Source of the DNA: a virus
DNA length: 64,000 bases
Strand: one strand, 5' to 3'
Virus record (IMG/VR): IMGVR_UViG_3300043570_002836
Span: 32,512 to 96,511 of that record
Shown here: positions 25,184 through 25,381 of the stretch, piece by piece
Layout: the number at the start of each line of letters is the position of its first letter
Numbering within the stretch: the first letter of the stretch is position 1
Program-made: the position numbers and the translations under genes
The notes under the pieces: model-generated
Database searches by the model: none
Told to the model about the DNA's origin: nothing
Seen by the model: the letters and a program-made list of their open reading frames with translations, nothing else

Positions 25184-25215
25184 AAAAAAAACCCCTCTCT
25201 TTTGGAGAAGGGTTT
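25184..25215 (-). terminator. Attenuator terminator upstream of tRNA array A
   Basis: AAACCCTTCTC-CAAAA-GAGAGGGGTTT followed by a U-tract. Confidence 0.85.
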
Positions 25216-25247
25216 CATTTAAATTTTATCTTAATGAATTAACACAC

Positions 25248-25316
25248 CTACTCCGATACACAAGGATTGTCCCCCTCCGTTCTCGCATTTAAAAGTATGT
25301 TATTCAAATTTTGCAT
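25248..25316 (-). CDS. Putative leader peptide of tRNA array A (MQNLNNILLNARTEGDNPCVSE)
   Basis: atg caa aat ttg aat aac ata ctt tta aat gcg aga acg gag ggg gac aat cct tgt gta tcg gag tag; codons 3-17 match the array A anticodons. Confidence 0.8.
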   Translation of the reverse strand: MQNLNNILLNARTEGDNPCVSE

Positions 25317-25381
25317 TACTATGTCGTTTTTTATTAAATATATTGTACTTCTTGAAAAGTTCAATAGTTTATGAAAAAAAA

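Follow-up and report, generated by a model that had tools for sequence, protein, structure and literature searches.

The window analysed here is a single stretch of 64,000 nucleotides, corresponding to bases 32512–96511 of a 96,511-bp IMG/VR virus record from a large uncultured phage, whose completeness is ~33% as estimated by CheckV. The record has a G+C content of ~31%, i.e., it is A+T-rich, and codes for a T4-like large terminase, a Lon-like protease and DnaK. A search of cultured phages for similar DNA returned no match, and the nearest terminase among them is 26–29% identical to that of the record. Shine-Dalgarno (SD) motifs are unused throughout the record (5/92 long ORFs vs. a background of 3.8%), the regions upstream of start codons are 50% A, and TAnnTTTG motifs are present at the tRNA modules, a combination that suggests a Bacteroidota-type host.

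Two tRNA arrays, A and B, each preceded by a short leader, lie on the minus strand of the window together with all the leader and array features described below. Array A (23860–25091) comprises 11 elements, identified with ARAGORN and Rfam plus, in the case of an Ala-UGC-like element, by fold and alignment. The order of the elements called by ARAGORN and Rfam is Leu-TAG, CAT, Glu-TTC, CAT, Asp-GTC, Thr-TGT, Asn-GTT, Arg-TCT, Leu-TAA and Gly-TCC. The first CAT tRNA (24939–25013) is most likely Ile2, as the first-pass annotation had suspected from the presence of an ATA codon in the leader: five relatives have a tRNA-Ile(TAT) at the homologous position, and the acceptor stems are near-identical. 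The second shows the marks of an initiator, namely C1xA72 together with an anticodon stem containing three G-C pairs. The Ala-TGC-like element (23935–23860) is called neither by ARAGORN at default settings nor by Rfam at the gathering score; it nevertheless folds into a cloverleaf with G3:U70 and an odd D arm, and aligns to an ARAGORN-called Ala-TGC of a relative. The interior of the array also contains two ORF-free, non-tRNA stretches on the minus strand (24429–24646, ~218 nt, and 24016–24100, ~85 nt), which may be small RNAs or the remnants of introns or endonucleases.

Ahead of the leader ORF of array A lies a promoter-like site, P1 (25335–25364, minus strand), in which TTGAAC is followed, 19 nt from the TTG, by TATATTTA. 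The site resembles the Bacteroidota-type -33/-7 layout (TTG N19 TAnnTTTG) minus the final G. The leader ORF (25248–25316, minus strand) starts with an ATG at 25316 and consists of 22 codons followed by a TAG at 25250–25248, so that its predicted product is MQNLNNILLNARTEGDNPCVSE*, laid out as MQ-NLNNILLNARTEGDN-PCVSE; when the sequence was read again, coordinates and letters agreed exactly with those reported in the first-pass annotation. The ORF has no SD motif, as is usual for genes of this phage (5/92), and sits in the A-rich context typical of the record, in line with its presumed translation. Downstream lies an intrinsic terminator (25184–25212, minus strand) with a CCCUUCUC / GAGAGGGG stem, a CAAAA loop and 8 U; the G+C-rich stem occupies 25212–25192 and has 8 bp, and the T-run extends over 25191–25184.

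The segment between the terminator and the first tRNA contains two additional elements. The first of these, P2 (25142–25173, minus strand), is a second promoter-like site of the form TTTG N20 TAGATTTG; P2-type sites occur four times in 96.5 kb, P2 itself is conserved in relatives, and a similar copy (TTG-N20-TAGATTTG) is present ahead of tRNA-Glu at about 24880–24913 on the minus strand. As with P1, we regard this as a putative promoter assigned from its motif. The second element is a conserved box, GTTCATTGACGTATTGG (25105–25121, minus strand), located 13 nt before the first tRNA of array A. A 17-nt box of the form GTTCNTTGACRTATTGG is found 13–15 nt before the first tRNA of each array, the second copy being at 29171–29187 on the minus strand, and its core TTGACRTATTGG (25116–25105 here) has two copies in the record, one per array.

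Array B is preceded by a sister module (29243–29476, minus strand) with the same components, namely a promoter-like site, a 39-codon leader (29420–29301) that contains a 27-codon block (29405–29325), and a terminator, followed likewise by a promoter-like site and the box before the first tRNA. Its leader peptide would read MRATEQHIKQVSPSKQIRVCCVSYPMWFSMSYGSENILS*, and the block covers all the set-B tRNAs, employing very rare codons such as cgc and tgc (0.02% each). Between the two arrays lies a gene for a 185-aa methyltransferase-like protein (25382–25939, minus strand), whose product gives a weak match (E 1e-5) to a PHROG annotated as tRNA methyltransferase; the gene is missing at the corresponding position of two relatives (G003 and L114). 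The window also contains two further aberrant tRNA-like elements on the minus strand that were missed by default ARAGORN and by the Rfam gathering score: a Met-CAU-like element (28278–28348), whose positional counterpart in G007 and L117 is called as a Met tRNA, and a Ser-UGA-like element (29074–29155), which is called by relaxed ARAGORN and matches the tRNA clan with an E of 0.008. A 41-codon ORF for a very basic peptide (28928–29053, minus strand), situated between the Ser-like tRNA and tRNA-Gln, is retained in relatives with many positions altered.

The leader codons match the downstream tRNA set

The central feature of the leader is a block of 15 codons (codons 3–17 of the ORF; 25266–25310, minus strand) that reads aat ttg aat aac ata ctt tta aat gcg aga acg gag ggg gac aat. 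As the first-pass annotation had proposed, these codons call for every elongator tRNA of array A (10/10, including Ile2 and the Ala-UGC-like element), with each codon family sampled one to five times. The ctt codon requires wobble at U34, and is replaced by cta in G003. Most codon types appear only once in the block, so that stalling would be signalled less strongly than by the repeated codons in classical leaders, and the order of the codons is unrelated to that of the tRNAs in the array. The G-ending codons, which had been singled out as unusual for an A+T-rich genome, are indeed minor ones (GCG 0.75%, ACG 0.56%, GAG 1.65% and GGG 0.74%); they could be read by host tRNAs with C34, or be retained for RNA structure.

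To gauge this correspondence, codons were allotted to the set of array A or that of array B following standard wobble rules, and all six frames of the 96,511-bp record were scanned for within-set runs. For set A, the leader block is the sole run that covers 10/10 elongator tRNAs, the runner-up reaching 8; for set B, the sister leader holds the sole run that covers 13/13 tRNA types, with a runner-up of 10. After shuffling of codons within frames, a genome-wide maximum of 10 for set A was attained in 0/300 shuffles, and one of 13 for set B in 1/300. Moreover, each of the top-coverage runs directly precedes its own array on the coding strand (at most 160 nt upstream in the case of leader A), a target that represents ~0.1–0.3% of positions. 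The codon match between leader and array A is thus beyond chance, given its unique coverage in six frames, the outcome of the shuffles, the cognate placement, and its occurrence twice in one genome.

Conservation and co-variation of leaders and arrays

Relatives were collected from IMG/VR, first via the terminase and then with array DNA, the leader motif and the neighbouring glycosyltransferase as queries, which yielded 24 leader loci; the methyltransferase gene, used as bait in the same database, retrieved no relatives, and one metagenome match (L152), which is G+C-rich, was discarded as a false positive. The 24 loci represent nine peptide variants in two lineages, with eight of the variants belonging to lineage 1. 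In all of them the ATG and the frame of the leader are preserved, including one case with an in-frame 3-nt deletion, and every change within the block stays within the codon set of the array (N to A, N to D, N to L, and LN to I, the latter being the 3-nt deletion). The conservation of the codon set that the first-pass annotation had put forward as a check is therefore borne out. The changes found in lineage 1 are N to A, N to D and LN to I, along with synonymous aat/aac, ctt/cta and ggg/gga; the synonymous swaps among relatives as a whole include ttg/tta, ctt/cta and ggg/gga, and the synonymous sites of gcg aga acg gag are unchanged across both lineages. The codons flanking the block, in turn, vary freely (Q/K, S/T, V/L/M). 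P1, with its motif and spacing, and the core of the conserved box are kept in both lineages. The terminator is unchanged throughout lineage 1, and changed yet still paired in lineage 2.

Lineage 2, whose glycosyltransferase is 68% identical, offers a natural rearrangement of the tRNA content. Its tRNA-Asn is located in the other array, with none in the counterpart of array A (A'), and the array-A leader, MKNLLNILLDARTEGDKPFVTEKVC, has gone from five Asn codons to two, its core ILLDARTEGD covering the nine remaining tRNAs in ten codons. The leader of the other array is largely rewritten (MKTFGKHMINFKQSQIVISCNRNWYPSMSYGSPKCFIS) and has a 25-codon block with three Asn codons that covers all 14 types; this block ranks top only when Asn is counted in its set. 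The tracking is imperfect: two Asn codons persist in the lineage 2 array-A leader despite the absence of a tRNA-Asn from A', several genomes have extra tRNAs without a leader codon of their own (Gly-GCC in G003, L111 and L114, Val-GAC in L150, and Ile-AAT in L161), and gcg is retained in G007 and L117, where no Ala tRNA is recognisable. Between lineages, the sequence of the sister peptide is poorly conserved, but its codon coverage persists. Long G-rich structured stretches were also seen in lineage 2 at positions comparable to the ORF-free gaps of array A (L137, 17440–18170).

The upstream neighbour of the module varies from a methyltransferase gene here to a tRNA-Tyr in G003 and another ORF in lineage 2. 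Since it remains beside the array irrespective of this neighbour, the module goes with the array and not with the methyltransferase gene, which disposes of the concern, raised at the outset, that the terminator might serve that gene only. Beyond this clade, the more distant relatives (terminase 78–79% identical; G001, G002, G004 and G005) have 4–5 scattered tRNAs each in the stretches read, which comprised the whole of G001 (complete, 321 kb) and one 20-kb stretch from each of the other three, and no leader was found upstream of the tRNAs inspected in G001 and G005. The leader system thus seems confined to the clade with large arrays. In the first 50 kb of Flavobacterium phage immuto, the nearest cultured match, there are 4 tRNAs, three of which follow a 51-codon ORF without codon matching, indicating that a codon-matched leader is not general to phage tRNA clusters.

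Alternative pairings in the leader RNAs

The leader RNA is predicted to be highly structured, with a minimum free energy (MFE) of -40.6 kcal/mol and a z-score of -4.27, none of 200 shuffles being equally stable. Its most prominent element is a 16-pair helix between two segments, present in the MFE and centroid folds and recovered independently, along with the terminator, in the RNAalifold consensus of eight sequences. Region 1 (25291–25306, minus strand; UGAAUAACAUACUUUU) coincides with codons 4–9 of the ORF, and region 2 (25235–25254, minus strand; GGAGUAGGUGUGUUAAUUCA) spans the end of the ORF and 15 nt beyond it, with an inner hairpin between the two. Over the 8 sequences, pairing in this helix amounts to 94% of cells and includes one compensatory pair. 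In its 5' part, region 2 carries GGAG(A/U)AGG, which complements the 5' arm of the terminator; the remainder pairs with region 1. The first-pass annotation had proposed an antiterminator-terminator design; alternative pairings do exist, but the long helix between regions 1 and 2 had been missed.

As had been claimed, GGAGTAGG (25254–25247) and CCTTCTCC (25211–25204) are complementary at 7/8 positions. This figure is not significant alone: perfect 7-mers occur in 4.4% of shuffles, and there are none in this window. The pairing is weakened here by the TAG change. Most relatives read GGAGAAGG, the perfect 8-mer, at this position and stop three codons later (..SEKVC*), from which we conclude that the TAG of this window is derived; the overlap between the stop codon and GGAGTAGG, noted in the first-pass annotation, is real in this genome but is a derived trait of it and a few others. 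The complement GGAGAAGG:CCUUCUCC is 8/8 in G003, L111 and L114, 7/7 in G006 and G007, and 7/8 here, and for leader A an 8-mer that complements the terminator arm has a 1.1% probability of arising by chance. No covariation was seen in this helix among the relatives compared.

The counterpart in the sister leader shows a clearer pattern. In lineage 1 its antiterminator helix consists of GGUUCAG:CUGAACC, and in lineage 2 of GUCCGA:UCGGAC. All six distinct sequences keep it fully paired (100%) and together provide three compensatory pairs, against no more than 57% pairing for slid controls, and the 3' arm of the terminator remains unchanged between lineages through G-U wobble. The corresponding probability of a chance 8-mer match is 0.3% for this leader.

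The effect of a ribosome on the leader RNA was simulated by folding the nascent RNA at equilibrium with the ribosomal footprint masked, a crude model. In the array-A leaders of G000, G007 and L137, placing the A site at codons 2–17 leaves the terminator 5' arm paired upstream, and the arm is released if the ribosome is absent or its A site has moved to codons 18–19, so that the range of A-site positions that sequesters the arm coincides with the codon block. The masked folds also point to a second G-rich element, GGAGGGGG (25270–25277, minus strand; codons gag ggg), which may also bind the terminator 5' arm by way of G-U pairs and, in these folds, still sequesters it with a ribosome on the last codons; in leader B, the antiterminator forms even without a ribosome. 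Owing to these two behaviours, the 'off' state is not cleanly predicted. GGAGGGGG is carried by G000, L150 and L156, in which the early TAG stop weakens GGAGAAGG, and by lineage 2, in which the terminator arm is altered, whereas most genomes with an intact GGAGAAGG carry GGAGGGAG instead, L159 being an exception. This distribution may reflect an interplay of two alternative antiterminator elements.

A putative attenuator of tRNA genes and its alternatives

A short ORF upstream on the same strand, codons matched to the array, an intrinsic terminator, and the helix between regions 1 and 2 are all features of a leader-peptide attenuator. On the strength of these sequence features, we consider it probable (roughly 0.65) that leader A is a ribosome-stalling (trp-type) transcription attenuator that boosts read-through into array A. 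The core of this reading, a codon-indexed leader combined with a terminator and antiterminator, had been put forward in the first-pass annotation and is supported by the unique codon match, its retention in 24 loci, the co-variation in lineage 2 and the alternative pairings; what had been overlooked are the promoter-like sites after the terminator. P2 and the box imply that read-through would be only one of several inputs to the array, and the attenuator might even not feed array A at all.

In the proposed mechanism, transcripts would begin at P1 and carry the 22-codon ORF, which samples the codons of the ten downstream elongator tRNAs. With no ribosome on the RNA, region 1 would pair with region 2, the terminator would form and transcription would end at 25191–25184; with fast decoding, a ribosome at the end of the ORF would cover region 2, and the terminator would again form. 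If instead any of the sampled codons were decoded slowly, the tRNA being scarce, uncharged or cleaved, the ribosome would stall within the block and keep region 1 unpaired, leaving the GGAG(A/U)AGG of region 2 to pair with the terminator 5' arm. The terminator would then be blocked and RNA polymerase would enter the array, replenishing exactly those tRNAs. The net effect would be a negative feedback on the decoding capacity for the codon set, acting atop the downstream promoter-like inputs; both this direction of the switch and the regulation of read-through are predictions. A pyrBI-type logic, in which the ribosome blocks the terminator directly, was considered and rejected, the stop codon being 27–36 nt ahead of the terminator arm.

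Three other explanations have to be weighed against the attenuator. That the leader is an ordinary short ORF beside the terminator of the upstream methyltransferase gene, spotted after the fact, is effectively excluded. A row of 15 set-A codons is in itself unremarkable, set A accounting for about half of codon usage and longer runs being present, and the 7/8 complementarity of this window is insignificant; against this, coverage is the highest in six frames, is equalled in 0/300 shuffles and falls at the sole cognate location, twice in this one genome, and the module is retained where the methyltransferase gene is missing and co-varies with the array content. A structured non-coding leader or terminator RNA involved in processing, stability or protein binding, in which the ORF is incidental and the G-rich codons serve pairing, would account for the very stable fold (z = -4.27), the invariant synonymous sites of gcg aga acg gag in both lineages and the participation of GGAGGGGG in predicted pairings. 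It is nonetheless quite improbable, for it leaves unexplained why two distinct leaders each cover the tRNA set of their array fully and exclusively, why the indel is in frame and the substitutions remain in-set, and why Asn codons move along with the Asn tRNA; no Rfam family matched at E up to 0.1.

The alternative that we take most seriously, while still judging it unlikely, is a self-contained tiny gene made up of promoter, ORF and terminator with no control of the array in cis, the array being transcribed from the sites after the terminator. In this scenario, the ~150-nt terminated RNA, the peptide or the stalled ribosomes would act in trans, for example as an sRNA, as with rnTrpL, or as a stalling signal. 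The promoter-like sites and conserved box found between terminator and first tRNA in both arrays fit such a gene, as do a strong and invariant terminator and masked folds that give no clean off state. It does not explain, however, why the end of the ORF complements the terminator 5' arm in both leaders, nor the co-variation of this complement in the sister, and it sits poorly with a sister peptide whose sequence has diverged across lineages although codon coverage has not.

A tentative extension of the attenuator, which we regard as doubtful, is that the two leaders form a paired homeostat of the tRNA pool, in which each array would be induced when its own codon set is decoded slowly and the two would be coupled reciprocally. 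Codons of the other set do sit at positions where a stall would favour termination (PCVS after block A, and G.ENIL over region 2 of the sister). The triggers, put forward just as tentatively, could be for instance a host anticodon nuclease that cleaves tRNAs, or a host pool unfit for A+T-rich phage codons. Such a homeostat would give the phage a sensor of its own for individual tRNA species, with tRNA genes as the target.

The closest parallels are the attenuators of amino-acid operons. The classical trp, his and pheA leaders respond through this type of control, and multivalent attenuators are found in enterobacteria, such as the thr leader (Thr, Ile) and the ilvGMEDA leader (Ile, Leu, Val). 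The phage leader shares with them a short ORF rich in regulatory codons, an intrinsic terminator and, by prediction, exclusive 1:2, 2:3 and 3:4 pairings and, like the thr and ilvGMEDA leaders, would sense several aminoacyl-tRNAs together. Attenuation by the pheL leader peptide is described in PMC3082878. Unlike these systems, the phage leader precedes tRNA genes and not biosynthetic enzymes, has 10–14 codon families, mostly sampled once each and matched to the downstream genes instead of to the end products of a pathway, is borne by a phage with an SD-less type of host, and is followed by promoter-like sites after the terminator. The pheST operon of E. coli, in which the pheM leader attenuates the expression of phenylalanyl-tRNA synthetase, provides a precedent for leader-peptide attenuation of a component of the translation machinery, with feedback on decoding capacity, but there the gene is cellular, its product is a protein and a single amino acid is concerned. 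T-boxes likewise sense tRNA status and switch between terminator and antiterminator before translation-related genes; they bind one uncharged tRNA directly, without a ribosome or an ORF. A search of 23500–29500 gave no match to the T-box or any other Rfam family at E up to 0.1, and a T-box identity of the leader was rejected on this basis.

Two further systems share part of the logic. The trn operon of Anabaena PCC 7120 is a long, stress-induced tRNA array under the repressor TrcR (PMC8421152, PMC10272220), and resembles the phage arrays in being an accessory set of tRNAs turned on under impaired translation; control there is exerted by a protein repressor, vs. a leader ORF and terminator in the phage, and neither paper describes a leader ORF or a terminator, with attenuation going unmentioned in the one from 2021. 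In antibiotic-responsive leader peptides such as ermC, msrD and similar ones (PMC10314930), which target resistance genes, a ribosome stalled in a short ORF also remodels the downstream RNA, but the stall is caused by the drug and the nascent peptide, whereas codon supply is proposed here.

Our search of the literature on leader peptides and attenuation in connection with phage or tRNA operons found no published case in which a leader peptide controls tRNA genes. Arrays of tRNA genes are common in phages and, to our knowledge, little has been established about how their expression is set. If the proposed attenuator is correct, it would be the first known to act on tRNA genes, and would extend leader-peptide attenuation to 10–14 codon families and to SD-less hosts. 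It would also tie phage tRNAs, in a testable manner, to the depletion of tRNAs that results from a mismatch in codon usage or from tRNA-cleaving defences, and would represent a compact natural sensor of individual tRNA supply.
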